64,000 nt of DNA from Phycisphaerae bacterium (GCA_041687575.1 JAWLBS010000001.1:2700-66699); one strand, 5' to 3'; shown: positions 5,262-63,046, counted from the stretch's first letter. Notes: generated by a model not told the origin, from the sequence alone. Program-made: numbers and translations.

Positions 5262-5778
5262 TTTGCGGATTTCGCAAGATTGTGCAGCGCGGAGGGAAAC
5301 AGCCTTCCGCAGATTTCGCAGATTGACACAGATCAGAAACAACAACGGCAGGGGTCAGAGGTCAGGGATCAGGGGTCAGTGAGCAACAGCCACGGCAACA
5401 ACAAAGAATATATCAGCCACGGATGAACGCGGATGAAACGCGGATGAACGACAACGGCAGTTGTAGGGCGGGCTGCGCCCGCCAAAGCCGTTGCAGGGTG
5501 GGCGACTCTGCCCACCAAGGCACTGTGCCGGGTGGTCGCGCTGTCTGCGACCATGGATCCGCGGATTGGCGAGACTCCCGCAGACGGACGGGAAGGAGCC
5601 CGAAAGCGTCAGCGAGGGTGACTTTGTCCTTCCGCAAGGGCGAGACCTCCGCACCCCGCGCCAACGAGCCGCGACCGTGAGGGAGCGGTAATCTGTCGCA
5701 CCTACCCCACCCGCCGCCCTTGTCACCCTGCCACGCCGGCACGTTGTCATATTGTCATATTGTCACGTTGTCAGCCCC
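5262..5778. repeat. intergenic repeat mosaic (BIME-like) with REP-type palindromes
   Basis: Contains CGCAGATTTCGCAGATTGACACAGAT, (GGGGTCAG-like)n at 5351-5379, GCGGATGAA x3 and GTAGGGCGGGCTGCGCCCGCC at 5463-5483. Also contains GAGCCGCGACCGTGAGGGAGCGG and a TTGTCAYR tandem at 5741-5774. All modules recur elsewhere in the window. Confidence 0.75.
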
Positions 5779-6468
5779 TCACCCTGTCGCGCACATCAGG
5801 ATGTAGACCCACAGCGCCACCACCATCAGCGCCGTGCCGACGGCGACGTAGCCTAGCAGCTGCTTGATGAATTCCGGCACCCACCGAAACGGCATGTCCG
5901 CCACGATCGCGATCAGCGTCAGGGGGGTGAGCGCAAGGCCCACGACTCTGCCCAGTGGCCCGAGCAGCCGCCTGAGCGCCGACCGGACCGGCGTGCCCCC
6001 CGGTTTCGGCTCGCCCTTTGCCTCAGGGGCCGCGGGCTTGCCGGCCTGCAGCTGCTTGATCGCCTGCTTGATCTCCTGTTCCACCTCGTCGTCGGCGACG
6101 GGCTCTGTCTCGGCCGAGACGGGAGTATCGGCGCCGCCATCAGTCGCCCGACCGCCGGCGCGGCGATCGGCGAGCCTGACGGGCGCCGCGTCCGTGGGGG
6201 CGGATTCGGCGGCGTCGTCCATCAGCGGTTCGGGCCCGGTTGCGTCTAGGGACTCCTCCTCACCAGCGGCGTCGGCGGGATCGGCCCTGCCGACCTCCTC
6301 GACCAGCGTCGAGGCGGCTGATTCGAGATGATCGAGTTTCTTTTCGACCTCGGCCTCGTCCACCGGCTGCGTCAGGTCGTCCTGTCCGCGCGGCTGACTC
6401 GAACCGGGTTTTTCTGCGGGATCCACCTGGCACCTCCCTGCCGCACGCCCCGGGGGCACATGCGGCAC
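5779..6468 (-). CDS. hypothetical acidic protein with C-terminal membrane anchor
   Basis: ORF only. Asp/Glu/Ala/Pro-rich N-terminal ~160 aa, then two hydrophobic helices (VVGLALTPLTLIAIV, LLGYVAVGTALMVVALWVYILM). True start uncertain. Confidence 0.4.
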   Translation of the reverse strand: MPHVPPGRAAGRCQVDPAEKPGSSQPRGQDDLTQPVDEAEVEKKLDHLESAASTLVEEVGRADPADAAGEEESLDATGPEPLMDDAAESAPTDAAPVRLADRRAGGRATDGGADTPVSAETEPVADDEVEQEIKQAIKQLQAGKPAAPEAKGEPKPGGTPVRSALRRLLGPLGRVVGLALTPLTLIAIVADMPFRWVPEFIKQLLGYVAVGTALMVVALWVYILMCATG

Positions 6469-6592
6469 TCAACGATGTTTCATCGGCCCGAACCGGCTGC
6501 GGCCCAAGCGGCAAGCCGCACAAGGATCCGGGGCAGCCGCGTTGGCAACGACACCGGGACAAGCCGCCCCGTTTACCCTAAAATACGCCGGC

Positions 6593-7450
6593 ATGACCGA
6601 CCACTGGCTTTACAGCGAAAATCTGCCCGCCGCCCCGGCCGACTGGACGCTGGAGGGGTCCGAGGCCCAGCACGCCCGGGCCCGGCGCCTCACCGCCGAC
6701 GAACCGGTCCACCTGTTCGACGGCCGGGGCCGCGTCTGCGCCGCCCGTGTCCGTGCGGCCGATAAGCGGGTCCTGCGTTTGCGGATCGAGACGAGCGCGA
6801 CGCTGCCTCCCCGGCTGCCGCGCCTGACCGTCGCGGTCAGCCCCCCCAAGGGCGACCGGCTGGACTGGATGCTCGAGAAGCTGACCGAACTGGGCGTGGC
6901 CGCCATCCTGCCGATCCGCTGCAAGCGGTCGGTCGTCCAGGCGAAGGATGACCGGCTGGAACGGTGGCACCGGCGGTGCGTCGAAGCCGCCAAGCAGGCC
7001 CACGTGGCCCACGTGCCCGCGGTCGCCGAGCCGCTGGACTTGGCGCAGCTGCTCGGTGGCGCCGGGGAGTTCACCCACACGTTTGTGCCCGACACGGTCG
7101 GGTCGGTCCTGTCGATCCTGTCGGTGGAGCCCCTGTCGCTGAATGCCAGGCCGGTCGTCATTATCGGCCCGGAGGGGGGCTTTGCCGACCACGAGCGCGA
7201 CCTGATGACCCGCAGCGGCGCCCGGACGGTCGGCCTGGGGCCGACGGTCCTTCGCACGGAAACCGCCGCAATCGTCGCCGCCGCCTGTCTGCTGATTGCC
7301 GCCGACGCGCGGGCCGACCGGACAGCCGGCACGGTCGAACCGGCGAGCGAGGGCGACGGTCCCGCCGCCCCCTTGCTTCCGCCGGCCGGATCCGAGGGTC
7401 CCGCCAATCCCTCCAGCCCGCCGGCCGGACCGGGGGAGGCCGCGCCGTGA
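6593..7450 (+). CDS. rsmE: 16S rRNA (uracil1498-N3)-methyltransferase RsmE, with Pro/Ala-rich C-terminal extension
   Basis: HARARRL, PPKGDRLDWMLEKLTELGV, IGPEGGF and LGPTVLRTETA motifs. Start taken at MTDHW (ATG 6593). Confidence 0.85.
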   Translation: MTDHWLYSENLPAAPADWTLEGSEAQHARARRLTADEPVHLFDGRGRVCAARVRAADKRVLRLRIETSATLPPRLPRLTVAVSPPKGDRLDWMLEKLTELGVAAILPIRCKRSVVQAKDDRLERWHRRCVEAAKQAHVAHVPAVAEPLDLAQLLGGAGEFTHTFVPDTVGSVLSILSVEPLSLNARPVVIIGPEGGFADHERDLMTRSGARTVGLGPTVLRTETAAIVAAACLLIAADARADRTAGTVEPASEGDGPAAPLLPPAGSEGPANPSSPPAGPGEAAP

Positions 7451-8274
7451 CCTTCGAACCGACCCTGTCCGCCCAGCGGCTGCAGGCCGCCTTGCGGACC
7501 CGCCGGATCGGCCGCCGCCTGCACAGCCTTGCCGAAGCCGACAGCACCAACAGCATCTGCTGGCAGCACCTGGAGGCGGAAGAGGCCGGGGCCGACGGCA
7601 CCGTCGTGCTGGCCGATTACCAGACCGCGGGCCGCGGCCGGTTCCACCGCGTCTGGCTGGCGCCGCGGGCGTCGAGCGTGCTTCTGAGCGTCCTGATCGT
7701 CCAACCGGCCGAACCGCTGTTGGCCGAGCGGCTGAGCCTGATCGCCGGGATTGCCGGCTGCTTGGCGTGCCGTAGGGCCAGCGACGCCGAGATCCAGCTT
7801 CGCTGGCCCAACGATCTGGTCTGCCGACGGCGGAAGGTCGGGGGCATCCTCGTCGAGTCCCGCGCGATGCCGGACGCCCGGGTCGCCGCGGTGATCGGGG
7901 TCGGCATCAACTGCCTGCAGCACGCCGGCCACTTCCCGCCGGACCTGCGCGACCGGGCGGCGTCGCTGGACATGGTCAGCCCCAACCCCATCTCAAGATT
8001 TGACCTGGCTGTCGACCTGCTGGGCCGCCTGGACGCATGGTTCGCCAGCCGGCCGCTGCCCGGCGCCGAGGTCGTGCGGGCGAAATGGCAGGACCTGGCC
8101 GAACCGCCGGGCATGCGGGTCTGCCTGATCCACGCCGGCCGGCGTTACTATGGCACGACCATAGAGCTGGACCCGGCCGGCGGCCTGCTGGTGCAGCTGG
8201 ATTCGGGGGGGCGACGCATTTTCCCGGCGTCAACGACGACGCTGGAAGCGACCGATCCGCCGCCGGCAGCTTGA
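7447..8274 (+). CDS. birA: biotin--[acetyl-CoA-carboxylase] ligase
   Basis: GTG 7447 overlaps the rsmE stop (GTGA). QTAGRGRFHRVW (GRGRxGRxW-type biotin-binding loop), GIGINC. No N-terminal HTH domain visible. Confidence 0.85.
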   Translation: MTFEPTLSAQRLQAALRTRRIGRRLHSLAEADSTNSICWQHLEAEEAGADGTVVLADYQTAGRGRFHRVWLAPRASSVLLSVLIVQPAEPLLAERLSLIAGIAGCLACRRASDAEIQLRWPNDLVCRRRKVGGILVESRAMPDARVAAVIGVGINCLQHAGHFPPDLRDRAASLDMVSPNPISRFDLAVDLLGRLDAWFASRPLPGAEVVRAKWQDLAEPPGMRVCLIHAGRRYYGTTIELDPAGGLLVQLDSGGRRIFPASTTTLEATDPPPAA

Positions 8275-8760
8275 TTATAAGCGGCGTCTGCGCCGCGCTG
8301 CATAGTCGGGCAGCGGCATTCAACGTGAGATTCGAGAGTCGCGCAGCTGGGAGGCTTGGGTGAAAGCGGCGTCACGGCCGCCGCAGTCCACAGTCGTCGC
8401 TGATCGTCCCGTTAAGTTTGAGAGCGGGGAACCGAGGGCGGCTTGATTGAAAGCGGCGTCTTTGGCGTCGCACTTCAAGGGCTGTCGCCGTCTTTCACGG
8501 CCCTGCGCCCGGCTTCGTTGGACGCCGGCTGAGCAGGGCGGGTCGCGGGAACGTGGCGCCCCCTGACTCTCCTTTCGCCCCTGACGGGGGCTTTGGCGGG
8601 CACAGCCCGCCCTACAACTGCCGTTGTTATTTCTAATCTGTGTCAATCTGCGAAATCTGCGGAAGGTCGTTTCGCTCCGTCCTGTACACGTTATCAGAAT
8701 CTGCGGACGGCTGCTGTTGTCGTTCACTGGCAACTGTCCGTTGGCCACTGCCTGTCCCCT
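8269..8760. repeat. intergenic repeat mosaic
   Basis: Three direct copies of GCTTG(A/G)TTGAAAGCGGCGTC..GCCGC at 8269-8296, 8354-8384 and 8441-8473. REP GGCGGGCACAGCCCGCCCTAC at 8595-8615. Inverted copy of the CGCAGATTTCGCAGATTGACACAGAT module at about 8635-8665. Confidence 0.7.
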
Positions 8761-11270: not shown

Positions 11271-11405
11271 TCCGCCGCTGCGCCTGTACAAAAACAACAA
11301 CAACGTCTATCCGCGGATTTCGCAGATGATCGCGCCAGTCGCGCAGGCGAAGCCCGGTTCTGAGAAACCGTATGCGCCAATGCGCGCACGTACGGGACGG
11401 GCTGC

Positions 11406-13087: not shown

Positions 13088-13364
13088 GTAAATTCAGTCG
13101 AGTTTTCGGTTAGGCCGGTGTGGCCGCAAATGGGCGATTCGTGCGAAAATTCGGCAAATGGCTTGACTTTTTGGTCGGCACTGGTCAACCGCGGGGCGGG
13201 GGCGGGCGGGGCGTAGTGGCAGTGTTATATTATCGGATAGTGACCGGGAGTGTCGCCAGCGCAGGCGGGCGACGGGGCTCGGTGCGCTGCGCGTGCCGTC
13301 GCCCTGCACAAAGTGGAGGGTCTCGACCTCCCAAGGCGCTACACCATGGGCACGCTGTCCAGTA

Positions 13365-13442
13365 GAGATTCTTCGCTGCGCTCACAATGACAGCTTCTGA
13401 CGCTTCCCCGAGGTCGTCATTCTGAGCAACGCGAAGGATCTC
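13365..13442. repeat. long inverted-repeat module (GATCCTTCGCGTTGCTCAGAATGAC family)
   Basis: Arms GAGATTCTTCGCTGCGCTCACAATGAC (13365-13391) and GTCATTCTGAGCAACGCGAAGGATCTC (13416-13442). Single arms recur at about 19555-19590, 40130-40160, 40182-40210 and 57501-57530. Confidence 0.7.
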
Positions 13443-13550
13443 TACCTCTCGGCGTGAGCTTCGCTTGCGTTTTGTGCCCTCCCCCTCGTCACCCTGAACA
13501 GGGACTCCTAGCTACACCTCGGGCACGGGCGCGACTATGATGGGTCGCTT

Positions 13551-16199
13551 ATGACTACGCCGCCGAACCGACAGACGACTTCCCTGACCGACGAGCAGCT
13601 CGATGGGCTGACGCCGGCCATGCGCCAGTACGTGCAGCAGAAGGCCCAGGTGCCCGATGCGCTGCTGCTGTTTCGCATGGGGGACTTTTATGAGACGTTC
13701 TACGAGGACGCCAAGACCATCGCCAAGGTCCTGGGCCTGACGTTGACCGCGCGGAACAAGGGGGAAAACCCGATCCCCTTGGCGGGCATCCCCTATCACG
13801 CCCTGGAGACCTACCTCGGCCGGCTCGTGCAGGCAGGGCTCAAGGTGGCCATCAGCGAGCAGATCGAGGACCCCCGCCAGGCCAAGGGGATCGTCCGGCG
13901 ACAGATCACCCGCGTGATTACCCCGGGTACGTTGACCGACGAATCGCTGCTGAAAGGCAGCGAGGACAACTGGCTGGCGGCGGTCTGTCCGGCCGGGGGT
14001 GGGCAGATCGGCCTGGCGTGGGTGGAGCTGGCATCGGGGCGGTTTCTCACGCAGGTGCTGGACGAGCAGTCGGCCATCGACGAGCTGGTGCGGTTGCGGC
14101 CGGCCGAGCTGCTGATCGGCGAGGAGGTGCTCACCGGGCGGTGCAAGTCGTTCGCCCGGCAGGTGAAGGAGTTGATCGACTGTGCGGTGACGCGGCTGGC
14201 GGAGTGGCAGTTCGAGCCGTTCCAGGCCGAGCGGCGGCTGCACGAGCAGTTTGGGGTGACCACGCTGGAGGGGTTCGGCTACGAGCGGTTCGACGCGTCG
14301 CTGCAGGCGGCCGGGGCGATCCTGGACTACCTCCAGCAGACGCAGCGGACGCAGCTGGGGCACGTCCGGTCGATCCGGCGGCGGACGAGCGGGCAGTACG
14401 TGCAGATCGACCGGGCGACGCTGCGGTCGCTGGAGATCGAGCGGCCGCTTCGCGGCGAGGGGCGGGGTGGCACGCTGCTGGCGGCGGTCGACCGGACAGT
14501 CAACCCGATGGGGCTGCGGCTGTTGCGGATGTGGCTGTGCTACCCGCTGCAGGAGGCCGAACAGATCCTCGACCGCCAGCGGGCGGTGCAGTGGCTGCTG
14601 GATCGGGCGACCGCGACCAAGCATGTGCGGCAGGTGCTGGCCGATGTCGGCGATGTCGAGCGGATCGCCGCGCGGCTGGGCATCGAGCGGGCGACCCCGC
14701 GGGACCTGGCGAACCTTTCGAGCGCGCTGAACCAGCTGCCGGACCTGCGGCGCCACCTGGCTGGGGTCGATGCGCCCCTGGTCGTCAGCCAGACCGCCAA
14801 ACTCGACGGGCTCGATCCGCTGGCGGCGCTGCTGAGGCAGGCGATCAAACCGGACGCCTCGACGATCGCCCGCGAGGGAACGATCATCGCCGACGGCTTC
14901 GACGCCGAGCTCGACCGGCTGCGGACCCTCTCGCGGGACGCGCACTCGTGGCTGGCCGAGTACCAGGCGCGGCAGATCCAGGAGACGGGCATCTCCTCGC
15001 TGCGGGTGGGCTTCAACAAGGTGTTCGGCTACTACATCGAGGTGACCAACACGCACGCGGACCGCGTGCCGGACCACTACATCCGCAAGCAGACCCTGAA
15101 GAACGCCGAGCGGTACATCACCGAGCCGCTGAAGGAATATGAGAACGAGATCCTGACCGCCCAGGAGCGGGCGAAGGACCTGGAGCTGAGCCTGTTTGCC
15201 AAGGTCCGCCAGCAGGCGCGGGAGTTCGTGCCGCCGCTGCAGGAGGCGGCCAGCGGCCTGGCGATCCTGGACGTGCTGGCGGGGCTGGCGCAGCTGGCGG
15301 GCGAGCGGCGGTACTGCCGGCCGGAGATCGTCGAGGGGATCGGCCTGGACATCCGCGAGGGGCGGCACCCGGTGCTCGATCAGACGCTGGCCGAGCAGTT
15401 CGTCCCCAACGACGCGGTCTTCGACGAGACGACGCAGCGGCTGATGATTTTGACGGGCCCGAACATGGCGGGCAAGAGCACCTACATCCGGCAGGTGGCG
15501 CTGCTGACGCTGCTGGCGCAGGTGGGGTCGTTCGTGCCGGCCGGTTCGATGCGGCTGGGGCTGGTGGACCGGATCTTTGCGCGGGTGGGGGCGTCGGACG
15601 AGATTTCGCGCGGGCAGTCGACGTTCATGGTGGAGATGGTCGAGACGGCCAACATCCTTCACAACGCGACGCGGCGGAGCCTGGTAATCCTCGATGAGAT
15701 CGGGCGGGGCACCAGCACTTTCGACGGGTTGTCGCTGGCGTGGGCGATCACCGAGTACCTCGCCAAGCGGACGGGCTGCCGGACGCTGTTTGCGACGCAC
15801 TACCACGAGCTGACGGAGCTGGCGGAGCTGCTGGAGGGGGTCCGCAACTGCAACGTGGCGGTCCGTGAGTACCGCGAGGAGGTGATCTTCCTGCACCGGA
15901 TTGTCGCGGGCGGGGCGGACAAGAGCTACGGCGTGCAGGTGGCGCGGCTGGCGGGGATCCCCGCCGAGGTGATCGCGCGGGCGGGCGAGGTGCTGGCGGA
16001 GCTGGAGCAGAACTTCGTGCGCGAAAGTCACGGGCCGAGCCTCTCGCGGGAGCGGACGCGGGACGAGGGGCAGATGCTGCTGTTCGACATGCCGCACCCG
16101 TGCGTGGAGCGGCTGCGGGGGATGGATGTGGCGAAGATGGGGGCGGACGAGGCGCTGGCGTTGTTGAAGGAGTTGCAGAGGCAGGCGAAGCGCTCCTGA
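13551..16199 (+). CDS. mutS: DNA mismatch repair protein MutS
   Basis: 882 aa. TPAMRQY, GDFYE, Walker A GPNMAGKST, DEIGRGTSTFDG, FATHYHEL. Confidence 0.95.
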   Translation: MTTPPNRQTTSLTDEQLDGLTPAMRQYVQQKAQVPDALLLFRMGDFYETFYEDAKTIAKVLGLTLTARNKGENPIPLAGIPYHALETYLGRLVQAGLKVAISEQIEDPRQAKGIVRRQITRVITPGTLTDESLLKGSEDNWLAAVCPAGGGQIGLAWVELASGRFLTQVLDEQSAIDELVRLRPAELLIGEEVLTGRCKSFARQVKELIDCAVTRLAEWQFEPFQAERRLHEQFGVTTLEGFGYERFDASLQAAGAILDYLQQTQRTQLGHVRSIRRRTSGQYVQIDRATLRSLEIERPLRGEGRGGTLLAAVDRTVNPMGLRLLRMWLCYPLQEAEQILDRQRAVQWLLDRATATKHVRQVLADVGDVERIAARLGIERATPRDLANLSSALNQLPDLRRHLAGVDAPLVVSQTAKLDGLDPLAALLRQAIKPDASTIAREGTIIADGFDAELDRLRTLSRDAHSWLAEYQARQIQETGISSLRVGFNKVFGYYIEVTNTHADRVPDHYIRKQTLKNAERYITEPLKEYENEILTAQERAKDLELSLFAKVRQQAREFVPPLQEAASGLAILDVLAGLAQLAGERRYCRPEIVEGIGLDIREGRHPVLDQTLAEQFVPNDAVFDETTQRLMILTGPNMAGKSTYIRQVALLTLLAQVGSFVPAGSMRLGLVDRIFARVGASDEISRGQSTFMVEMVETANILHNATRRSLVILDEIGRGTSTFDGLSLAWAITEYLAKRTGCRTLFATHYHELTELAELLEGVRNCNVAVREYREEVIFLHRIVAGGADKSYGVQVARLAGIPAEVIARAGEVLAELEQNFVRESHGPSLSRERTRDEGQMLLFDMPHPCVERLRGMDVAKMGADEALALLKELQRQAKRS

Positions 16200-16242: not shown

Positions 16243-16295
16243 GGCGGGCACCGTTCGACTCGCTTTGCTCGCTCACGGCAAGCAGCCCGCCCTAC
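16243..16295 (-). repeat. REP-type palindrome with expanded loop
   Basis: GGCGGGCACCGTTCGACTCGCTTTGCTCGCTCACGGCAAGCAGCCCGCCCTAC. Near-identical units at 40213-40265 (same orientation) and 53560-53612 (inverted). Confidence 0.75.
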
Positions 16296-43101: not shown

Positions 43102-43154
43102 ACATCCTTTGCGGCCAAGGCCTTTGGAATGTCAGGCCATGACCACGTCCGGTC

Positions 43155-45700: not shown

Positions 45701-46417
45701 TTATTCTTGGTCGGTGGCGACCGTTGGATCGGGCGGAGGCGCCTGCATCCTTGCCATTTCCCGTTCCACGAGGGCCTCCTGGCTGGCCTGGCGCTTGCCC
45801 AGAGTCTCCTCCAGGTCATGCAGCCGCTGCTTGAGCATCTGCACGCGAAGCCGGTCCTGCTGCAGCCGCAGGTCCACACGCTGCCGCGCCAGCCGCCGGG
45901 CCTCATCCAGCATCGCCGGCCGATCGGCATGTTCGGATGCCTGGTACTGCTGCTGCCACTCGCGAATCGCCATTTCGTTGCGATGCAGGGCGACCATCAG
46001 GTCGGCCAGCTCCGGGCTTTGGCGGCGGGCTTCCTGGAGGCGGTGCAGCCAGGGACGCATCTGTTTCTCAAGGCGGGCGTATTTTCGCGCGTCGCGCCCT
46101 CGGAGGCTGCGAAGATGGCGAGACTGTTCCGGATAGAACCGTCTGAGGGCTTCCCACAACGGCCGATCGTCGTCGTGTGGCGTCCGGGCATCATCCTCGG
46201 CCGGCCGGGAAGCCGGGGCCTGCACCTGCGCACCGGTGGCTGGCTGGCTTGCGGTGGCCCGATCCGGCCTTCGGGCGCCCTGCTGGCCGCTGGCCACGCC
46301 TGCCATCAACATGCAGCCAAGTCCGATGGTCACTATGGTCCACAATGCCCGGTGCGTCTTGCACATGTCGTCGCCCTTGTCCTTCATTGATATCTGCATC
46401 CGTTGCTTCACCACCAC
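45701..46417 (-). CDS. periplasmic coiled-coil protein (Spy/CpxP/LTXXQ-like by composition)
   Basis: Signal-peptide-like CKTHRALWTIVTIGLGCMLMAGVASG, then Arg/Gln/Glu-rich helical repeats. Lies immediately downstream of the anti-sigma gene. Start uncertain (46417, 46387 or 46366). Confidence 0.5.
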   Translation of the reverse strand: MVVKQRMQISMKDKGDDMCKTHRALWTIVTIGLGCMLMAGVASGQQGARRPDRATASQPATGAQVQAPASRPAEDDARTPHDDDRPLWEALRRFYPEQSRHLRSLRGRDARKYARLEKQMRPWLHRLQEARRQSPELADLMVALHRNEMAIREWQQQYQASEHADRPAMLDEARRLARQRVDLRLQQDRLRVQMLKQRLHDLEETLGKRQASQEALVEREMARMQAPPPDPTVATDQE

Positions 46418-46442
46418 GACTTCTCACCATGTCTTGCGGACC

Positions 46443-46988
46443 TCAGGCCAGCGCACCGTTCGGTCCGGCGGGGGCATCCTGCTGGTCCGCGGAGGGCTGC
46501 GGCAGCGCCGGTTCGCGATCCCACGACTGCGTCGCCTGCTCCAATTCCCTCAGTTCGGTGCCGATCGCGTAGATCTCTTCGTCCGCCGGTTCGGCCGGGA
46601 GCATGGCAGGCAGGGTCGCGGCGAACAGGTCGAGACTGACCGCCTCATCGGCCGTGTCGCGATCCATGGTCCGGTCCGCGATGCGCCGTGCCTGGTCCGC
46701 TGTCTGAAGCTGGATCAGGCGGCCGCGCACGAACAGGCCGGCCCCGACCGTCAGGATCACTACCGCGGCGGTTGCAGCCAGCCATCCGGCGCTGCGCCGC
46801 CAGGCAGGCATGTGCGATGGCGAGTGTAGCATTTCCTGCCGCAGCCTCGCTTTGACGCGACGCAGCGTCTCATCGGAGGGGGCGGCGGCGGCCTCGACGC
46901 GGTGGCGCAGTGCCGCCTCTGCCTGGAGGATCTGCTGTTCTATCTGCTCGTACTGCTTTTCCATATCCGTATCTGTTCGTTTCGACAT
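46443..46988 (-). CDS. putative anti-sigma factor (single-pass membrane protein)
   Basis: Position directly after the ECF sigma gene. N-terminal helical cytoplasmic part, one TM (WLAATAAVVILTVGAGLFV), short periplasmic tail. No zinc (HxxxCxxC) motif. Confidence 0.55.
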   Translation of the reverse strand: MSKRTDTDMEKQYEQIEQQILQAEAALRHRVEAAAAPSDETLRRVKARLRQEMLHSPSHMPAWRRSAGWLAATAAVVILTVGAGLFVRGRLIQLQTADQARRIADRTMDRDTADEAVSLDLFAATLPAMLPAEPADEEIYAIGTELRELEQATQSWDREPALPQPSADQQDAPAGPNGALA

Positions 46989-47019
46989 CGTGCAACTCCC
47001 GTGCAATCGCTTTTCGCGC

Positions 47020-47616
47020 TCAATCGGGGGCGTCGCCCAACCTCTCCCGCAGGTGCTTCAGGCCCCGGTGTGCCCTGGCCAGGGCGGTGCCCAGCGGTAT
47101 CTGCAGCATCTCGGCGATCTGCTTGAAGGGCAGATCGGAGAAGAACCGCAGGAGGATCACTTCCCGCTGGGTCTCGCTGAGTGTCGCGAGTGCCTGCTCC
47201 AGCGTCTGGGCCTGTTCCACCTGCAGGAGTCGGCTGTCCGGGCCGGGCCCCTCCCCCGCCAGCCGGGCGATGCAGTCCTGACCGTCCTGGCCCGTGGCGA
47301 CCGGGACCGCCCGGCCGCGACGGCGGATCGCGTCGCGGGCGAGATTGGCGGCGATGCTGAACAGCCACGGCTCGAACCGGCCGTCCTCGCGGTACCGCCC
47401 GAGCCCCCGCAACATTTTGACGAAGGTCTCCTGGAGCAGGTCCTCGGCCTGTGCCGCTGAGCCCACCATTCGATACAGCAAGCCGTAAAGCCTTGGGGCG
47501 TAAGCGTCGACCAGCCGATCGACGGCGTCGGTCTGGCCTGATTTCGCCCGGCTTACCAGCTCGGTCAAGTCGGTTGTCTGTTCTATCCGTTCCAAGGTTC
47601 TACCTGTATAACGCAT
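47020..47616 (-). CDS. ECF (group 4) RNA polymerase sigma factor
   Basis: Region 2 DLLQETFVKMLRGL..PWLFSIAANLARD. Region 4 LSETQREVILLRFFSDLPFKQIAEMLQIPLGTALARAHRGLKHLR. Start at MRYTGR (ATG 47616). Confidence 0.85.
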   Translation of the reverse strand: MRYTGRTLERIEQTTDLTELVSRAKSGQTDAVDRLVDAYAPRLYGLLYRMVGSAAQAEDLLQETFVKMLRGLGRYREDGRFEPWLFSIAANLARDAIRRRGRAVPVATGQDGQDCIARLAGEGPGPDSRLLQVEQAQTLEQALATLSETQREVILLRFFSDLPFKQIAEMLQIPLGTALARAHRGLKHLRERLGDAPD

Positions 47617-47675
47617 CGTCCGGCGGGCGATTGCATCCCGCCGAGCCTGCTGCGCAGCATCCTGTTCGGTAGCAC

Positions 47676-47703
47676 TTGAATTCCTTCTGGCCAACGGTAC
47701 AAT
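47676..47703 (+). promoter_or_regulatory. sigma70-type promoter of rpmB
   Basis: TTGAAT (47676-47681), 16 nt, TACAAT (47698-47703). Confidence 0.5.
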
Positions 47704-47755
47704 GTTGGTTTTCGGCGCAGGAAGCTTTGATAACGGTCCCTTGGGAGTCCTGGCT

Positions 47756-48013
47756 ATGCCTCGAGTTTGCCAATTTACCGGTAAGAAAACAATACACGGA
47801 CGCAGCATCACCCGCCGCGGCAAGGCCAAGTACCTCGGCGGCGTCGGCGTCAAGACCACCGGCATCACCAACCGGAAGTTCAAGGCGAACATCCAGAAGG
47901 TCAGGGCGGTTGTCAATGGCGTGGTGGTCCGCGTCAAGGCCTCGGCCAAGGCGATGCGCCTGGGCCTGATCGAAAAGCCGGTCAAGCGGAATTACAAGCC
48001 CGAGCAGTCGTAG
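47756..48013 (+). CDS. rpmB: 50S ribosomal protein L28
   Basis: MPRVCQFTGKKTIHGRSITRRGKAK... matches the L28 N-terminal signature (M-x-R-x-C-x-x-TGK). Confidence 0.9.
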   Translation: MPRVCQFTGKKTIHGRSITRRGKAKYLGGVGVKTTGITNRKFKANIQKVRAVVNGVVVRVKASAKAMRLGLIEKPVKRNYKPEQS

Positions 48014-49352: not shown

Positions 49353-50813
49353 ATGCAGACTGCGTATCAGATAAGTCAGGCAATCCGAAGTGGCAAGTTG
49401 ACCGCTGAGCAGGCCGTGACGGCTTCGCTCGAGGCGATCGGCAAGCTCGACCCGCAGGTCCGGTCGTTTCTGTGGGTCAACCAGCAGGGGGCACTCGAGG
49501 CCGCGCGGCAGATCGACAGGCGAATCGCCGCGGGCGAGGCGGTCGGGCCGCTGGCGGGGGTGCCGGTGGCGGTCAAGGACAACATCTGCACCATGGTCGG
49601 CCGGACGACCTGCGCGTCAAAGATCCTGGAAAACTTCCAGAGCCCCTATAACGCCCACGTGATCGACCTGCTGGAAAAGGCCGGGGCGGTCGTCGTCGGC
49701 AAGACCAATCTCGACGAGTTCGCCATGGGCTCATCGACGGAGAATTCCGCCCTGGCGGCCACCCGCAACCCGTGGGACATGGAGAAGGTCCCCGGCGGCT
49801 CGTCGGGCGGTTCGGCGGCGGCGGTGGCCGGTCGGATGGTGCCGGTGGCGCTGGGGTCGGACACGGGCGGGTCGATCCGCCAGCCGGCCAGCTTCTGCGG
49901 CGTGACGGGTCTCAAGCCGACGTACGGGCGGGTCAGCCGGTTCGGGCTGGTCGCCTTCGGCAGCAGTCTCGACCAGATCGGGCCGTTTGCCACCGACGCC
50001 CGCGATGCGGCGCTGCTGCTGCAGGCGGTGGCCGGCCACGACCTGCGGGATTCGACCTCGGCTGACGAGCTAGTGCCGGACTATCTGCAGCAGATCGAGT
50101 CGCTGGAGCTGCCGCTGAAGGTGGGGATCGCCGCGGAATACTTCGGCGAGGGGCTCGACCCGCAGGTGAGGGTCGCGGTCGAGGCGGCGATCGAGCTGCT
50201 CAAGGGCAAAGGGGCCCAGATCGTCGAGGTGCACCTGCCGCATCTGAAGTACGCGGTGGCGACCTACTACATCGTCGCGACGGCCGAGGCATCCAGCAAC
50301 CTCGCCCGCTACGACGGCGTGCACTACGGCCACCGCACCGCCCAGCCGCGGGATTACATTGATATGTACTGCACCAGCCGGGCCGAGGGTTTCGGCCAGG
50401 AGGTCAAGCGGCGGATCATGCTGGGGACGTTCACGCTGTCCAGCGGCTACTACGACGCGTACTACAACAAGGCGTTGAAGGTCCGCACGCTGATCAAGCG
50501 GGACTTCGAGCGTGCGTTCGAGCAGTGCGACGTGATCGTCTCGCCGACGGCCCCCGCGCCGGCCTGGACGCTCGGGCAGATGGCGGACGACCCGCTGGCG
50601 ATGTACCTGGCGGACATCTACACGATCTCGGCGAACCTGGCGGGCATCCCGGGCATCAGCGTGCCGTGCGGGCTGAGCAATGCCGGCCTGCCGATCGGGA
50701 TGCAGCTGATGGGCAGGCACTTCGCCGAAGGGCGGCTGCTGCAGGCGGCGTGGGCGTATCAGCAGGAGACCGACTGGCACAAGAAGCAGCCGGAGCTGGC
50801 GGTGGGCAGTTAG
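49353..50813 (+). CDS. gatA: Asp/Glu-tRNA amidotransferase subunit A
   Basis: Amidase signature GGSSGGSAAAVA, GSDTGGSIRQPA, KDN. Confidence 0.95.
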   Translation: MQTAYQISQAIRSGKLTAEQAVTASLEAIGKLDPQVRSFLWVNQQGALEAARQIDRRIAAGEAVGPLAGVPVAVKDNICTMVGRTTCASKILENFQSPYNAHVIDLLEKAGAVVVGKTNLDEFAMGSSTENSALAATRNPWDMEKVPGGSSGGSAAAVAGRMVPVALGSDTGGSIRQPASFCGVTGLKPTYGRVSRFGLVAFGSSLDQIGPFATDARDAALLLQAVAGHDLRDSTSADELVPDYLQQIESLELPLKVGIAAEYFGEGLDPQVRVAVEAAIELLKGKGAQIVEVHLPHLKYAVATYYIVATAEASSNLARYDGVHYGHRTAQPRDYIDMYCTSRAEGFGQEVKRRIMLGTFTLSSGYYDAYYNKALKVRTLIKRDFERAFEQCDVIVSPTAPAPAWTLGQMADDPLAMYLADIYTISANLAGIPGISVPCGLSNAGLPIGMQLMGRHFAEGRLLQAAWAYQQETDWHKKQPELAVGS

Positions 50814-50886
50814 CTATGGCAACAAGCGACGCAAGCATCTCTTCGTGCCACTGGGAAACGCACCAAGGTGGCGATTGGAATCGGGC

Positions 50887-51771
50887 ATGAGTTGGCTACT
50901 GTTTCTTGACGAAAGCGGACATGACCATCTGAACGCACCGTATGAGGTTCACGGTGGCATTGCGATTCATGCATCGAAGCTTTGGGCCTTCATCCAGGCC
51001 GTGAAGACGCTGGAACAGTCGGTCTTCGGTGCGGATCTGCGTGAATACGATGTCGAAATCAAAGGAGCGAAGCTGCTTCGCCGTCGGTGTTTCGATTGGC
51101 AGGGCCAAGGCGTTGTACTCGACAACGCCGCACGGAGGAAGCATGCGCTCAACTTCCTTAATTGTGGCAAGCAGGATCGACGGCCTCGGCGGGAAGAATT
51201 CACTGCTTACGGACAGGCATGCATCGCCATGGCAGAGGGAGTGATCCAGCTCCTCAAGAGTCATGATGCAATGCTTTTCGCGGCTGTGGTTCCTCGTCAT
51301 GTGAGGCCGTCAGCGACACCGACAGACTACCTGCGCAAGGATCTGGTCTTCCTGCTGGAACGTTACTTCTACTTCCTCGAGCTCCGGCAGGAAAACGGGT
51401 TGCTTGTCATGGACGGGTCCGACAAGGCCGCGGATAGGCATGTCGTTCGCTGTATGGAGCGATACTTCACGCTAACGCAGGTTGGACGTCAGCGAACACA
51501 GTGGATCGTGCCGGTTCCACTGTTTGTGGAATCTGATATGGCTTACGGCGTCCAAGCGGCCGATCTGTGCATCTACTGCCTTAACTGGGGTTGGCGTTCG
51601 CGCGAGATGACAGAGGCAACCCGGGCGGAGATAGAGCCGTTCGTGTGGTTGCTTGGGAAATTCATGTGGCACGGGGATGGCGAACGAGGAGGCAAAGTGT
51701 TCAAGACGCACGGCGTGTTCTATCTGCCGAACCTGTACGAGGTGGGGCAGGCGCAAGAAAAAAGCAGGTAA
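50887..51771 (+). CDS. DUF3800-like protein, low-GC insertion between gatA and gatB
   Basis: Starts MSWLLFLDESGH (the xxxDESG opening typical of DUF3800). 294 aa. Visibly lower GC (mid-50s % by eye) than flanking genes. Confidence 0.6.
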   Translation: MSWLLFLDESGHDHLNAPYEVHGGIAIHASKLWAFIQAVKTLEQSVFGADLREYDVEIKGAKLLRRRCFDWQGQGVVLDNAARRKHALNFLNCGKQDRRPRREEFTAYGQACIAMAEGVIQLLKSHDAMLFAAVVPRHVRPSATPTDYLRKDLVFLLERYFYFLELRQENGLLVMDGSDKAADRHVVRCMERYFTLTQVGRQRTQWIVPVPLFVESDMAYGVQAADLCIYCLNWGWRSREMTEATRAEIEPFVWLLGKFMWHGDGERGGKVFKTHGVFYLPNLYEVGQAQEKSR

Positions 51772-51917: not shown

Positions 51918-53408
51918 ATGACCACAACAACCGACCTCAAGACCCGGCCGATCATCGGCCTGGAAATCCACGTGCAGCTGGCGACGAAGACCAAGATGTT
52001 CTGCTCGTGCCCGATCGAGTTCGCCGGCGAGCCGAACAGCCGGGTCTGCCCCGTCTGCATGGGCATGCCCGGCGTGCTGCCGGTGATCAACAGGCAGGCC
52101 GTCGAATACTCGATCCGGCTGGGCATGGCGGTGGACTGCCAGATCTCGGAGTTCACCAAGTGGGACCGCAAGAGCTACTACTACCCGGACCTGCCCAAGA
52201 ACTACCAGATCAGCCAGTACGACCTGCCGCTGTGCCATGATGGCCACTTCGACATCCGGACCGACGCCGGCACCAAGCGGATCCGCATCCGCCGGGCCCA
52301 CCTCGAGGAGGACGCCGGCAAGAACCTGCACGAGGGGCTCGACCACACGCGGGTGGATCTGAACCGCGCGGGCACGGCCCTGCTGGAGATCGTTACCGAG
52401 CCGGACATCGCCAACGCCGACGAGGCGTACACCTTCTGCACCGAGCTGCAGCGGCTGGTCCGCTGGCTGGGCATCAGCGAGGCCGACATGCAGAAGGGGC
52501 ACATGCGGTTCGAGCCGAACGTCAACGTCGCGATCACCGTTCCGGACGGCAGGGAATACCGCACGCCGATCATCGAGATCAAGAACCTCAACAGCTTCCG
52601 CTCCGTCCGCAACGCGATCGCCTACGAGATCCAGCGGCAGGTCGGCGAGTGGGAGGCCGACCACGATTACACGATCGAGAAATTCGGCAAGGAGAACCGC
52701 GGCTGGGACGACGACCGCGGCGTCAGCGAGTTCCAGCGGGGCAAGGAAGAGGCCCACGACTATCGCTACTTCCCCGACCCGGACCTGGTGCCGATCGTCC
52801 CCGAGCAGGCCTGGCTCGATGAGATCCGCAGCCAGATGCCCGAGCTGCCGATCGCCCGCCAGCGCCGGCTGATCGACACGCACGGGTTGACCGAGGCCGA
52901 GGCGGTGCAGATCGTCACCGACCGGGCGACCGCCGACCTGTACGAGGCCGCCATCGCGGCTGGCGGGGACGCCAACGTGCTGGCGCGGGAATTCGTCTCG
53001 TTCTGGGCGATGCACGCCAACGCCCGCCAGTGCACGATCGCCGAGCTCGGCATCGACGCGGCGCGGATCGGCCAGCTCTCGCGGCTGGTGGCCGACAGCA
53101 CGATCAACGCCACCGCGGCTGCGACGATCGCCGAAAAGATGCTCACCAGCCCCGACGGACCCGAGCAGATCGCCAAAGCGGAAAACCTCATCCAGACCTC
53201 CGACGCCGGCGCCCTGGAGACGCTGGTGGACGAGGCGTTGGCCGCCAACCCCAAGGCGGTCGAATCGGCTGCGCCGGGCCACAAGAAGCAGAAGGCCTCG
53301 TTCGGCTTCTTGACTGGCCAGGTGATGAAGGCCTCCGGCGGCCAGGCGAACCCGAAGGTGGTGCAGGAGATTTTGACGAGGAAGCTGGCGGAGATTTATC
53401 CGGAGTAG
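51918..53408 (+). CDS. gatB: Asp/Glu-tRNA amidotransferase subunit B
   Basis: IGLEIHVQLATKTKMFCSC, VCPVCMGMPGVLPV, DLNRAGTALLEIVTEPD, C-terminal YqeY-like tail. Confidence 0.95.
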   Translation: MTTTTDLKTRPIIGLEIHVQLATKTKMFCSCPIEFAGEPNSRVCPVCMGMPGVLPVINRQAVEYSIRLGMAVDCQISEFTKWDRKSYYYPDLPKNYQISQYDLPLCHDGHFDIRTDAGTKRIRIRRAHLEEDAGKNLHEGLDHTRVDLNRAGTALLEIVTEPDIANADEAYTFCTELQRLVRWLGISEADMQKGHMRFEPNVNVAITVPDGREYRTPIIEIKNLNSFRSVRNAIAYEIQRQVGEWEADHDYTIEKFGKENRGWDDDRGVSEFQRGKEEAHDYRYFPDPDLVPIVPEQAWLDEIRSQMPELPIARQRRLIDTHGLTEAEAVQIVTDRATADLYEAAIAAGGDANVLAREFVSFWAMHANARQCTIAELGIDAARIGQLSRLVADSTINATAAATIAEKMLTSPDGPEQIAKAENLIQTSDAGALETLVDEALAANPKAVESAAPGHKKQKASFGFLTGQVMKASGGQANPKVVQEILTRKLAEIYPE

Positions 53409-53880
53409 TAGGGCGGGTTGTGCCCGCCAAAGTTGCCAGTTGCCAGTGAACGGCAGGGATCAGGGGTCAGGGGGCAGGGGATCGGGTGGCAAAGGTCAGT
53501 GGATCGGGTGCCGCGGTCCTGCACAAACGAGCCGCGACCGTGAGGGAGCGGTAGATCACGTAGGGCGGGTTGCCTGCGGTGAGCGAGCACAGCGAGTCGA
53601 ACCGTGTCCGCCAAGTTCGGAGTCCCGGCTTCAGCCGGCGCTTGGAGTACCTGCTTCAGCAGGCGTTCGGAGTACCGCCTTCAGGCGGTCCGCCCGAGCA
53701 AGCGCAGCGACGCGAGTGGCCGAGCTGCGTAGTTCGGGGTGCCGAACGCCAAGCAGGGCCTTGCGTCGTGGCGGATTGCAGCATCGCGTGGCATCGTGGC
53801 ATCCGGCAGCTTCAGGCGGACCTTGAATCAGGCCCCTGATGCCAGAGGCAGGTAGTCGCCGTACGGCTGTATCGGACGTC
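53408..53880. repeat. intergenic repeat mosaic
   Basis: REP GTAGGGCGGGTTGTGCCCGCC at 53408-53428, starting on the last base of the gatB stop. GGGGTCAG-type tandem at 53451-53512. GAGCCGCGACCGTGAGGGAGCGG. REP long form at 53560-53612. Repeated GTTCGGAGT(A/C)CC..CTTCAG units at 53620-53700. Confidence 0.75.
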
Positions 53881-53910: not shown

Positions 53911-55590
53911 ATGAGCGAGTCGTTGACGGATGGGTCGACTGAGGTGCAGGCGCGGCCGCGCAAGCGCCGCTGGCGGCGGAAAATTCTCCTGACGCTCGGG
54001 CTGCTGAAGGTTTTCGTCGTTCTCTGGATCTTCTGGCCGCTGTCATGGCCTGCCCTGAGGATCTCCCCGCAGACGACGGTAGTGACGGGACCGCTGAATC
54101 CCGACGGTACGGTCAACTACGTGGCAGCGCTCAATGCCGGACATTCCGCCGGTGTCACGGCTGGCAACAACGCGGCCACCCCCCTCTTGCGTGCATTGGG
54201 CCCTGAGGCGCTGCCGGAGGAGGTTCGCCGGACGACCCTTCAGATGCTCGGCATTGACGAATTGTCCGGGGAGGGGCAGTATTTCGTTTCTCTGGATGCG
54301 TTTCTGGCGGGCCAGGACCTGCATATGCTGCAGACTGAGGCCGAGGAGCAGGGGTGGGCATCGACCGCCATATACGCGTCTGATCGAATATTCACCGAAG
54401 CGAAAACCGGATACAGTCCGGAGATCCGTGTGCTGATCAGCCGCTGGTTGGAGGGCAATTCCACCTCACTGGAACAGGTGTCCCACGCGACCCGGCGGCC
54501 CCGTTTTTACCTGCCGTTGGTCAGTACATCAAGCCCTCCCCGTGTCATCGATGTCCTGGTTACCGGTCTTCCCGCCTTGAGAGATGTCTCCAAAGCAGTG
54601 TTTCTCCGCGGAGTCCTGCGGGTGGAGGAGGGGCAACTGGAAGAGGCTTGGGTCGATGCTGTAACGTTACATCGACTTGCTGCCCTCCCCGCACAGCAGG
54701 ACATGCTCGTTGCGCGCTTGGTCGGCATTGCAATCGATAGACTGGGCAGCGAACTGGGGCGGCGCATCGCAAACAGTCCCCGTATGTCGGCCCCTCAGGC
54801 CCGACGCATCCTGGCGCAACTTCAAGTCACTCCTGAACCTCCGATCTTTCGTGATGCGGTTGACCGGGGAGAGCGGTATATGGCGTTGGATACAGTCATG
54901 ACGTCAATGCGAACAGGCCCTGCGGGTCCGGGAGGCCCTCCGCTGCTTCTTCGGATTCCCGGGCTCGCATTGGATGTCAACGGGGTGCTGCGACGCGTCA
55001 ATCTGTGGTACGACCGCAATGCCAAGGCGTTTGAAGCCAGTAACCACATGGAGAGACAGCGATTGCTGGAGGATTCAGAGGCCGAACTGGACAAGTCTTC
55101 CAGCGATGGGTATTCCCGCATCGAATCGGTCCGCGGGTGGGCAGGGATCTTTGCAACACCGCCGTGGGCGCGCCGGCAGGAGCTGAGTACCCTTGGTGCT
55201 GATCTTGTCCTTTCCTTGGTAGCTCCCCGGCTCGCGAAAGGGGAAGACCTGTGGACGCAGGCGGTGATGGAGCGCCGTCTGGCGGTCCTCGCCTTGGCCC
55301 TGGCGGCATATCACTGCGAAAAGGGCGCCTATCCGCAATCCCTCGACGCCCTCGCACCGGACTACCTCGACGACGTGCCGCTCGACGAATTCACCGGCCA
55401 GCCTCTTCGCTACGTCTCGAACGAGCATGGCTATCTCCTCTACAGCCTCGGCCCGAACGGCAAGGACGACGGCGGCACGCCGGATGGCGACGAAATCCGC
55501 GGTGACGCAGACGACATCGTCGTCCGCGCCGGGACCGCACCCGGCTGCTCGCCCGCCGAGCCCGCCCCGAAATCGCCGGCCGGGCCCTGA
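53911..55590 (+). CDS. membrane-anchored hypothetical protein with C-terminal GspG-like (pseudopilin) domain
   Basis: Basic N-terminus plus TM (ILLTLGLLKVFVVLWIFWPL). The C-terminal AAYHCEKGAYPQSLDALAPDYLDDVPLDEFTGQPLRYVSNEHGYLLYSLGPNGKDDGG matches the globular GspG-type motif. Confidence 0.55.
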   Translation: MSESLTDGSTEVQARPRKRRWRRKILLTLGLLKVFVVLWIFWPLSWPALRISPQTTVVTGPLNPDGTVNYVAALNAGHSAGVTAGNNAATPLLRALGPEALPEEVRRTTLQMLGIDELSGEGQYFVSLDAFLAGQDLHMLQTEAEEQGWASTAIYASDRIFTEAKTGYSPEIRVLISRWLEGNSTSLEQVSHATRRPRFYLPLVSTSSPPRVIDVLVTGLPALRDVSKAVFLRGVLRVEEGQLEEAWVDAVTLHRLAALPAQQDMLVARLVGIAIDRLGSELGRRIANSPRMSAPQARRILAQLQVTPEPPIFRDAVDRGERYMALDTVMTSMRTGPAGPGGPPLLLRIPGLALDVNGVLRRVNLWYDRNAKAFEASNHMERQRLLEDSEAELDKSSSDGYSRIESVRGWAGIFATPPWARRQELSTLGADLVLSLVAPRLAKGEDLWTQAVMERRLAVLALALAAYHCEKGAYPQSLDALAPDYLDDVPLDEFTGQPLRYVSNEHGYLLYSLGPNGKDDGGTPDGDEIRGDADDIVVRAGTAPGCSPAEPAPKSPAGP

Positions 55591-56019: not shown

Positions 56020-56450
56020 GCGCTGGGTTCTGGGGGAGCCTCAACCTGCGGTTGGAGCCAGCGCAGGGCGTTCATCAGGGGTCTGACCCCGAGTCGCACG
56101 TTTCCCAGCGGAATCAACGCCTGGATTTCGGGGCGGCCTGGACGGGGGTGCATGTCACCGGGGTCTGACCCCGTGGGCCTCGATGATACGGCCCTGACAC
56201 AGGACTGTGGCACTCGTCGGGGTTCACCGCTCCCTCACGGTCGCGGCTCGTTGGTACAGGACCGAGGCACCCCTTGCAGCGTCTTCCCAAGGGGGGCAGA
56301 CCCGGGTGAGTCCTTCAGGTGTCGGTGCCGCCAAGGGAATTGGGACCGTGGACTCGAATGTGGGCGTGTTGCCAGAGGTCAGACCCCCGGCAGGCGCCTT
56401 GCTCTGCTGTTGATCCCGGAATGCCTCCGGCGACTCGCATACGGCGTTTC
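56020..56450. repeat. intergenic repeat mosaic with GGGGTCWGACCCC hairpins
   Basis: Hairpins at 56078-56090, 56160-56172 and 56375-56388. Inverted CCGCTCCCTCACGGTCGCGGCTC module at about 56228-56250. Confidence 0.6.
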
Positions 56451-57501: not shown

Positions 57502-57600
57502 GGATCCTTCACTTCGTTCAGGATGACGGCGTGTGGCGGGCGCAGCCCGCCCTACACTTCGTTCAGGACGACACTGGGGGCTGTCTGTACACCCCCGACA
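57501..57600. repeat. repeat modules downstream of the SMP-30 gene
   Basis: GGGATCCTTCACTTCGTTCAGGATGAC arm, REP GGCGGGCGCAGCCCGCCCTAC at 57535-57555, and a second CTTCGTTCAGGACGAC arm. Confidence 0.7.
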
Positions 57601-62882: not shown

Positions 62883-62942
62883 GCCGGCCAGGCAAAGCGA
62901 GGCTGCAGCCCCCAGCAGTCCTCACAGGCAGCAAAAAGAGCA

Positions 62943-62978
62943 ACGGAGGGCGACGCATCGCGTCGCCCTCCGTTTTTT
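62943..62978. terminator. bidirectional intrinsic terminator between convergent genes
   Basis: AACGGAGGGCGACGC / GCGTCGCCCTCCGTT perfect stem with TTTTTT on the plus side and an A-run upstream (T-run on the minus strand). Confidence 0.7.
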
Positions 62979-63010
62979 GGCTGTCTTCTCGCGGGACTTC
63001 CGTCGGGTGT

Positions 63011-63046
63011 CATATCTGTGTAATCTGCGAAATCCGCGGATAGCGG
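63011..63046. repeat. repeat module (CGCAGATTTCGCAGAT family)
   Basis: CATATCTGTGTAATCTGCGAAATCCGCGGATAGCGG. Related copies at about 5262-5335, 8628-8710 and 11295-11330. Confidence 0.6.

Follow-up and report, generated by a model that had tools for sequence, protein, structure and literature searches.

The DNA analyzed here is a 64,000-nucleotide (nt) stretch, referred to as the window, of the Phycisphaerae bacterium contig JAWLBS010000001.1 (positions 2700-66699; assembly GCA_041687575.1), and the elements under study are the repetitive extragenic palindromes (REPs) and the other short repeats that occupy its intergenic spacers. The contig belongs to a metagenome-assembled genome (MAG), and the repeat counts were drawn from the 64-kb window. 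The window has a GC content of 66%, and its GatB protein has as its nearest named relatives, at ~66% identity, those of 'Phycisphaerae bacterium' MAGs. The source is treated as a Phycisphaerae-like Planctomycetota chromosome with a housekeeping stretch (mutS, dnaE, gatCAB). A sulfatase, a rhamnosidase and a PEP-CTERM protein are also encoded in the window. The genes that serve as landmarks are:

13551-16199: mutS
26945-30553: dnaE
49353-50813: gatA
51918-53408: gatB

A search of the window with the REP core pattern GTAGGGCGGGC-N3-4-GCCCGCC gave 4 exact matches, where 0.00 were expected (100 shuffles), and allowing one mismatch resulted in 10 REP copies in 64 kb. These consist of 5 canonical or near-canonical copies, 2 copies of a GGTGGGC/GCCCACC subfamily (REP') and 3 copies with a 32-nt expanded loop, and they are balanced between the strands (5 plus, 5 minus). 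M2 in the following list is a companion module described further below.

5463-5483, plus strand: canonical REP, GTAG + GGCGGGC-TGC-GCCCGCC; exact pattern; DNA hairpin of -9.5 kcal/mol with GTAG unpaired
5493-5516, plus strand: REP' subfamily with GCAG as head and GGTGGGC/GCCCACC as stem; follows the REP at 5463 head-to-tail; one stem pair changed from C-G to T-A in compensation
8595-8615, minus strand: canonical REP; exact pattern and fold
16243-16295, minus strand: REP with 32-nt expanded loop; 12 nt past the stop of a minus-strand DUF4432 gene
30579-30599, plus strand: canonical REP; 26 nt past the dnaE stop; exact pattern and fold
40213-40265, minus strand: REP with expanded loop; 3' side fused to an M2 arm
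40297-40319, minus strand: REP' subfamily (GTAGGGTGGGC...GCCCACC); forms a head-to-tail doublet with the REP at 40265
53408-53428, plus strand: REP variant with one mismatch (GGGT) and one G.T pair; begins with the final base of the gatB stop codon
53560-53612, plus strand: degenerate expanded-loop REP; poor folding
57535-57555, minus strand: canonical REP; between two copies of ACTTCGTTCAGGA(T/C)GAC, a 17-nt piece of M2

The first-pass annotation, made from the sequence alone, had placed the canonical core at five sites; the core is exact at 5463, 8595, 30579 and 57535, whereas 53408-53428 is only a one-mismatch variant. The expanded-loop forms it had listed at 16243-16295, 40213-40265 and 53560-53612 were recovered, with a mutual identity of 85-93% over 54-58 nt, and BLAST searches for them in other genomes gave only chance matches (L038 and L017) in apparently ordinary non-repeat sequence. 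Its GGTGGGC-type variant at 40297-40319(-) also stands, but that at 5493-5516(+) is headed by GCAG and not by GTAG. Three REPs are identical over 23 nt (5462-5484, 30578-30600 and 57534-57556), and the copy at 8594-8616 differs from them by one base.

When folded as single-stranded DNA the short REPs form a 7-bp GC stem with a 3-5-nt loop (-8 to -11.6 kcal/mol), and the GTAG just 5' of this stem stays unpaired. All 49 of 49 stem cells are paired across seven REP copies. A compensatory C-G to T-A change occurs at one position of the stem in two copies and a G.T pair in one copy, and the head is GTAG in 9 of the 10 REPs and GCAG in the copy at 5493. Short (20-40 nt) GC-rich palindromes with an unpaired 5' GT[AG]G foot, in dispersed extragenic copies that mostly separate convergent or co-directional genes, are what the term REP describes, and the window has 10 such copies within 64 kb. 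The earlier assignment to this class is upheld by the GTAG foot, the perfect 7-bp stem with compensatory variation, the location exclusively downstream of genes, and the presence of an identical REP beside genes for REP-associated tyrosine transposases (RAYTs, or TnpA-REP) in other genomes. GTAG REPs of Planctomycetes (Rhodopirellula baltica) and Verrucomicrobia (Opitutus terrae) were catalogued by 2013 (Di Nocera, De Gregorio, Rocco; PMC3733652). According to that survey, they share with the window REPs the terminal GTAG, a 6-9-bp GC stem and a short loop, and likewise show complementary-change subfamilies, loop-expanded variants, several families per genome, and positions between convergent or co-directional open reading frames (ORFs), downstream of coding regions. 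A Phycisphaerae-like host lineage is not listed there.

With respect to the flanking genes, six REPs lie in convergent spacers, four in co-directional spacers and none in divergent ones (0/9 spacers), and this matches the distribution in convergent and co-directional spacers given in the 2013 survey (PMC3733652). The repeats as a whole lie downstream of genes only and 98% of the repeat-covered bases are intergenic. Some REPs adjoin stop codons, namely those of gatB (last stop base), the DUF4432 gene (12 nt) and dnaE (26 nt). The claim that mosaics fill almost every long spacer could be kept in part: the repeats are mostly intergenic, but they occur in 9 of the 13 spacers of at least 300 nt, and the within-window repeats cover ~1.5 kb of ~10 kb intergenic DNA, a minimum figure, since repeats whose partners lie outside the window escape notice. 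The density of 10 REPs per 64 kb, or about 156 per Mb, is comparable with that of E. coli or P. putida and below that of S. maltophilia. As it is similar to that of REP-rich genomes, it is high but not exceptional, and the description as unusually high was not retained.

The expansion appears specific to the lineage. Five loci from relatives (81-85% GatB identity) keep the rpmB-gatC-gatA-gatB synteny, and both GTAG REPs outside coding sequence and all of the modules are absent from these five loci. The spacer between gatB and the next gene measures 114 nt in two of them (L120 and L121) vs 502 nt in the window. Since the relatives lack the repeats at the syntenic locus, the expansion is lineage-specific as judged there, and the contrast with relatives that are repeat-free at this locus would make the lineage suitable for dating of a REP expansion as soon as complete genomes are available.

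The association of this REP with a RAYT was observed in other genomes. In species-representative genomes at least 118 stretches carry the REP core, and among the matches listed the hosts are Lysobacterales, Gallionellaceae, Thermoanaerobaculia, Desulfobaccales, Opitutaceae, Tepidisphaeraceae, Phycisphaerae and others. In two of the listed loci GTAGGGCGGGC-N-GCCCGCC flanks RAYT genes: in Rhodanobacter (L108) the RAYT gene at 6390-6917 has REPs at 6192(+) and 6940(-), and in a Verrucomicrobia locus (L050) a REP at 2899-2919 lies immediately upstream of the RAYT gene at 2922-3410. The two proteins share 53% identity, and each is ~50% identical to the E. coli YafM sequence; the L050 protein passed Pfam Y1_Tnp and the L108 protein had no Pfam match. 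TnpA-REP binds the folded single-stranded REP, requires GTAG for binding or cleavage, and cuts at a nearby CT or CA dinucleotide (PMC8266576). The S. maltophilia REP (SMAG, group 3 TnpA-REP; PMC8266576) resembles the window REP in having GTAG directly before a small perfect palindrome, with 23 nt, a perfect 8-bp stem and a 3-nt loop compared to a 7-bp stem and a 3-nt loop in the window. The presumed action would also be shared, with a single-stranded hairpin recognized and a nearby dinucleotide cut. The two differ in stem sequence, and the RAYTs beside the window-type REP resemble the E. coli enzyme (group 2, PMC8266576). The tnpA-REP genes have a patchy distribution, consistent with horizontal transfer and loss (PMC6006769).

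The REPs are interleaved with about ten other short repeat families. Self-BLAST of the window gave 36 distinct repeat pairs in ~25 blocks, and a more sensitive spacer-vs-spacer comparison gave 95 pairs. The copies are:

5306-5333, plus strand: M1 heptad iterons (CCGCAGAT-TT-CGCAGAT-TGA-CACAGAT)
8636-8663 (minus strand), 11307-11327 (plus strand) and 63014-63051 (minus strand): other copies of M1
13362-13445: M2 inverted pair (GATYCTTCRC..CAGRATGAC arms), 84-nt palindrome; fold -21.1 kcal/mol, z = -4.7
40130-40154, 40181-40205 and 57503-57527: M2 single arms
5577-5692 (plus strand), 31798-31925 (minus strand) and 35452-35562 (minus strand): M3-long, ~115-130 nt, ending in GAGCCGCGACCGTGAGGGAGCGG; from alignment
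53506-53553 (plus strand) and 56226-56272 (minus strand): 3' parts of M3 only
5349-5379 (plus strand), 53454-53480 (plus strand) and 35626-35652 (minus strand): tandem heptads (CAGGGGT)n after AACGGCAG
5384-5455 (plus strand) and 40339-40410 (minus strand): M7 composite with (CGGATGAACG)3 decamers; 72 nt, 89% identity, tandem repeats
5744-5773, plus strand: M8 octamers (TTGTCATA)n, directly next to the stop codon of a gene on the minus strand
40468-40495: second copy of M8, in the same relation to a panE-like gene
8279-8474, plus strand: GCGGCGTC-TTYG-GCGCCGC hairpin units, three, ~85 nt apart
31567-31745, minus strand: second GCGGCG-hairpin cluster, three units
30621-30684 (plus strand), 30893-30933 (minus strand) and 31134-31181 (plus strand): GGCCCTGCAAGGGCC-GGATAAGTAAGC... 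units, inside a 1445-nt non-coding spacer
53617-53688, plus strand: GGAGTMC-CNNNC-TTCA-GNNNG hairpins of 25 nt, three in tandem; score of 95 in tandem repeat finder, fold
56078, 56160 and 56375 (block 56078-56387), also 58884 and 58967: M4 13-nt palindromes GGGGTCWGACCCC
5533-5557 (plus strand) and 35586-35613 (minus strand): TGGTCRCGCTGT-TGYGACCA hairpin module

The other modules named in the first-pass annotation are all present, in 2-5 copies each, far above the Markov-1 expectation and nearly all intergenic; the bare 9-mer GCGGATGAA is the weakest case, with 5 found vs 1.05 expected and two occurrences intragenic by chance. M4 reaches 5 copies vs 0.15 expected. M3 is the 3' end of a 115-130-nt element with five copies in the window, and a structure test of M3-long gave too little covariation on either strand from three full copies. 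In two other genomes (L113 and L100) M3 palindromes adjoin the same REP, and an M2-like inverted pair was also found in a Verrucomicrobiota MAG locus (L057). Both GCGGCG-hairpin clusters lie in sense behind the upstream gene, and the stems of the TTCA-loop hairpins at 53617-53688 differ yet stay complementary. M4 (GGGGTCWGACCCC; GGGGTCAGACCCC) and the (CAGGGGT)n arrays contain GGGGTCAG, fitting GGGGWSAS, which PMC3733652 gives as the motif of inverted repeats flanking TIRYT-type Y1 transposase genes; this match is a lead only. The intergenic tandem heptamers ((CAGGGGT)n, (CGACACC)n) and the multi-family mosaic are also reminiscent of the cyanobacterial short tandemly repeated repetitive (STRR) heptanucleotide repeats and of the small non-coding repeats of Deinococcus, but the unit sequences differ and there is no sign of common origin. 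Two further simple repeats were noted: a heptad array (CGACACC)n of 4.3 copies at 35654-35688, which adjoins (GGGTCAG)n just upstream of the rhamnosidase gene, and an 11-nt homopolymer C run (G on the other strand) at 40424-40434, located in the 40121-40499 mosaic between a heptad remnant and M8.

The arrangement of REPs and modules in the mosaics is irregular. All three REP doublets run head-to-tail: 5463+/5493+ (30 nt from head to head), 40319-/40265- (54 nt) and 53408+/53560+ (152 nt). Bacterial interspersed mosaic elements (BIMEs) are defined by regularly spaced REPs of alternating orientation (PMC2817692). In this strict sense the mosaics are not BIME-like, since the doublets are tandem and the companion modules appear to be independent families and not fixed linkers; the label holds only loosely. 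Like E. coli REPs and BIMEs, the window REPs are palindromes with a GTAG foot that lie outside genes in clusters with other short conserved motifs, but instead of alternating orientation, regular spacing and fixed linkers they show tandem orientation and irregular spacing among modules also found without REPs. Certain junctions do recur: AACGGCAGTT precedes a REP twice, and a REP is followed by ACACGCY and an M2 arm twice. The modules of those junction types also occur without REPs and in other genomes.

Nesting is visible in a ~230-nt composite of [AACGGCAG + (GGGTCAG)n] - [CCATGGTCRC hairpin] - [M3-long], which is intact at 35435-35670(-). The copy at 5335-5700 is split by a 143-nt block consisting of the M7 decamer composite, a REP and a REP', and in the copy at 53430-53560 the center is deleted. 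The M7 composite adjoins a REP again at 40339-40410. A ~130-nt composite had been reported at 5355-5485 and, inverted, at 40295-40420; 72 nt of it match at 89% identity (5384-5455 vs 40410-40339), while the flanks are only loosely similar and carry different REP subtypes. A local duplication surrounds the REP at 57535, which is flanked by two 17-nt M2 pieces. Judged from its layout, the mosaic has the pattern that would be expected of repeated nested insertion, duplication and deletion among repeat families. Another planctomycete MAG (L116) has a mosaic in the same style, in which REPs are accompanied by a decamer array and a CGCAGAT block.

One of the companion modules, M1, is widely distributed. 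It is built of three CGCAGAT heptads that recur every 9-10 nt (general form atCCGCAGAT-TT-CGCAGAT-TA-CGCAGATt), and the module CCGCAGATTTCGCAGATTA is a palindrome arm. The 19-mer CCGCRGATTTCGCAGATKA occurs in at least 120 metagenome contigs with a GC content of 37-69%. An inverted arm lies within 160 nt in 63 of the 118 listed occurrences (median distance 22 nt) vs 0 in shuffles, and arms of one element match better than arms across loci (19.95 vs 18.11 +/- 0.22). The window copies are half-sites only, three of the four in sense and 6-40 nt past a stop codon. As the M1 sequence is kept regardless of genome composition, its recognition by a conserved protein or mobile enzyme would be implied. 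M2, M3 and M7 may be analogous; similar sequences appear only sporadically in M1 loci elsewhere, at a density far below that of the window. M1 has no match in Rfam, one weak, unannotated match (Gemmatirosa) in a plasmid collection, and none of six 16-17-nt M1- and M7-type strings, taken on both strands, was found in the searchable literature. It is a tentative and somewhat doubtful proposal that the companion modules, instead of being debris, belong to non-coding element families that are undescribed, conserved in sequence and shared across phyla, M1 being the clearest case. A transposase between the M1 copies of one locus (L165) was considered and rejected, as ordinary metabolic genes are bracketed there. 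In an unrelated M1-carrying contig (L139, 4976-6904) an ORF translation holds VILSEAKD and ILRSAQDD peptides, which are M2-type read-through; M1- and M2-type modules thus co-occur in other organisms and inflate the number of 'hypothetical proteins'.

None of the terminator-like sites in the regions scanned is a REP or module, and T tails are missing, so the repeats are not intrinsic terminators and that reading was rejected. The sole strong terminator in these regions is a hairpin at 62942-62974 with a 15-bp stem, which is preceded by an A-rich run (AAAAAGAGC) and followed by a T run; it is a bidirectional intrinsic terminator between convergent genes, and an M1 copy immediately follows. A search of the window against Rfam 15 (gathering score or E up to 1) gave two tRNAs and two chance-level matches away from the repeats, and the M1, M2 and M3 loci of other genomes had no Rfam match either. 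The single Rfam match among related loci, Acido-Lenti-1 RNA (RF01687, 41.3 bits; L228 1624-1671), sits in a run of GTAG-headed hairpins, e.g., GTAGCCCCGGGCGCAAGCCCGGGG, and this small RNA (sRNA) family may really be a REP-type repeat.

Taken as a whole, the gene-distal spacers have probably been colonized by several short non-coding interspersed repeat families, at whose core is a GTAG REP spread by a RAYT, and which are maintained selfishly. By analogy to the characterized systems, a RAYT is the most likely vehicle of the REPs, and we infer that RAYT-driven spread took place in the genome of the window and that the upkeep is selfish and not host-selected. The RAYT, an enzyme of the HUH-Y1 type whose gene lies, or once lay, elsewhere in the genome, would bind the folded single-stranded REP (GTAGGGCGGGCTGCGCCCGCC), use GTAG as a recognition or guide motif, and cleave and rejoin the DNA nearby. 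REPs and adjacent DNA could then spread into other single-stranded, non-essential sites, with the copies surviving downstream of genes only. The mosaic would be the residue of nested insertion, local tandem duplication and deletion among the REPs and the ~ten other families, which include iteron blocks of heptads and decamers, hairpins with tetraloops and longer composites; some of these families are apparently conserved far outside the lineage.

Several observations weigh against this interpretation. As the first-pass annotation had stated, the window contains no RAYT detectable by tblastn with E. coli YafM, by an HUH...Y motif search or by a hidden Markov model (HMM) from three RAYTs run in six frames; a RAYT protein search returned 7845 homologues, none of them attributable to the window lineage. 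REP-bearing genomes that lack tnpA-REP exist (PMC6006769), and current mobility is therefore unproven. No inverted REP doublet (REPIN-type) is present in the window, and head-to-tail doublets, to which all window doublets belong, are rare or absent in the 2013 survey (PMC3733652). The REPINs of Pseudomonas fluorescens (Bertels and Rainey 2011, as cited in PMC6006769) are likewise short non-autonomous REP-derived units with a presumed single-copy RAYT, but they are inverted doublets in one long hairpin, of which the window has none. No enzyme or binding protein could be assigned to the companion modules, and no recurrent gene family lies beside M1 among the listed metagenome loci. The copy numbers apply to the window and not genome-wide, the lineage specificity rests on one syntenic locus, and the orthologous spacers downstream of gatB do not align, so that insertion boundaries are undefinable.

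An unlikely alternative, compatible with the RAYT-based explanation, is that the repeats are mainly host-selected structural elements of the 3' untranslated region (3'-UTR) or the DNA, such as mRNA 3'-end protectors, read-through attenuators between convergent genes, or protein-binding sites. The exclusive location downstream of genes would suit such a role, as would the fact that M1 (three of its four copies), M8 (both copies) and the GCGGCG hairpins (both clusters) lie in sense with the upstream gene and close behind its stop codon (~6-40 nt for M1 and M8). The hairpins carry UUCG- and GNRA-type loops and tolerate G.T pairs on the sense strand only, the REP stem and the TTCA hairpins show compensatory changes, and the view published in PMC3733652 is that many REPs function as RNA elements. 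Nevertheless, the repeats are absent from the orthologous spacer in relatives that have the same genes, and the REPs have no uniform orientation with respect to the upstream gene: those at 8615 and 57555 are antisense. The lack of T tails argues against intrinsic terminators, nothing matches Rfam, and the covariation of M3-long, with its three full copies, is uninformative either way.

It is quite improbable that the REPs are relics whose cognate RAYT was lost and whose old insertions were reshuffled by recombination, slippage and segmental duplication. The missing RAYT in the window, the documented loss of tnpA-REP genes (PMC6006769) and the local duplications around the REP at 57535 are consistent with it. 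So are the degenerate copies: the fold of 53560-53612 is poor, and the head of the copy at 5493 is GCAG, a change with which cleavage is almost lost in the S. maltophilia system (PMC8266576). On the other hand, three REPs are identical over 23 nt with a fourth one base off, and the family is missing, at one syntenic locus, from relatives with 81-85% GatB identity; together these argue for a fairly recent amplification. [quoted passage not shown] The repeat units of 13-130 nt are below sequencing-read length, they lie among intact syntenic housekeeping genes, and the same motifs occur in hundreds of independent assemblies. A CRISPR array, which would have nearly identical direct repeats of constant period and unique spacers, was rejected because the clusters hold three units each, only 84-92% alike and spaced by roughly 75-85 nt; no cas genes were found among the 30 ORFs scanned against Pfam, and no search aimed at cas was made.

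As a REP system the window adds little, because location, subfamilies and loop variants follow the known pattern; only the host lineage is new. The potential for discovery lies in the companion modules, above all in the CGCAGAT heptad palindrome as a widely distributed short element. By sequence comparison, at least one companion repeat (M1) is conserved across very different bacteria, with no description in the literature searched. For annotation, the repeats generate many spurious ORFs over spacers, e.g., 30550-31287 and 5376-5750, and annotators of MAGs from the Planctomycetes-Verrucomicrobia-Chlamydiae (PVC) group should therefore mask them; the long ORFs that cross mosaics had no Pfam match and poor codon scores. 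The spacer at 30554-31998 (1445 nt, dnaE to the sulfatase gene) has no credible ORF or Pfam match, and the within-window repeats explain ~270 nt of it.

Apart from the repeats, insertions seem to favor the gatC-gatA-gatB cluster as a hot spot. In the window a DUF3800 gene (50845-51771, plus strand) lies between gatA and gatB, and at the same place in relatives there is an AAA_15/AAA_21 ATPase gene with a partner gene. One relative carries mazEF between gatC and gatA, and L120 and L121 have no insert at all; the inserts in the relatives are at 2046-2629 and 4214-6108 of L122 and at 92-1989 of L123. Two regions of lower GC (0.61-0.63), 43000-48000 and 53911-55590, have weak codon scores; the 559-aa ORF at 53911-55590 belongs to no Pfam family, yet homologues are present in relatives. 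Finally, a 112-nt direct repeat with 92% identity (33662-33773 and 35143-35253) flanks a PEP-CTERM/HAF-like gene at 33958-35100, with one copy 185 nt 5' of the start and the other 43 nt past the stop. It is dissimilar to the other modules and may be a duplicated 5' leader or promoter region.

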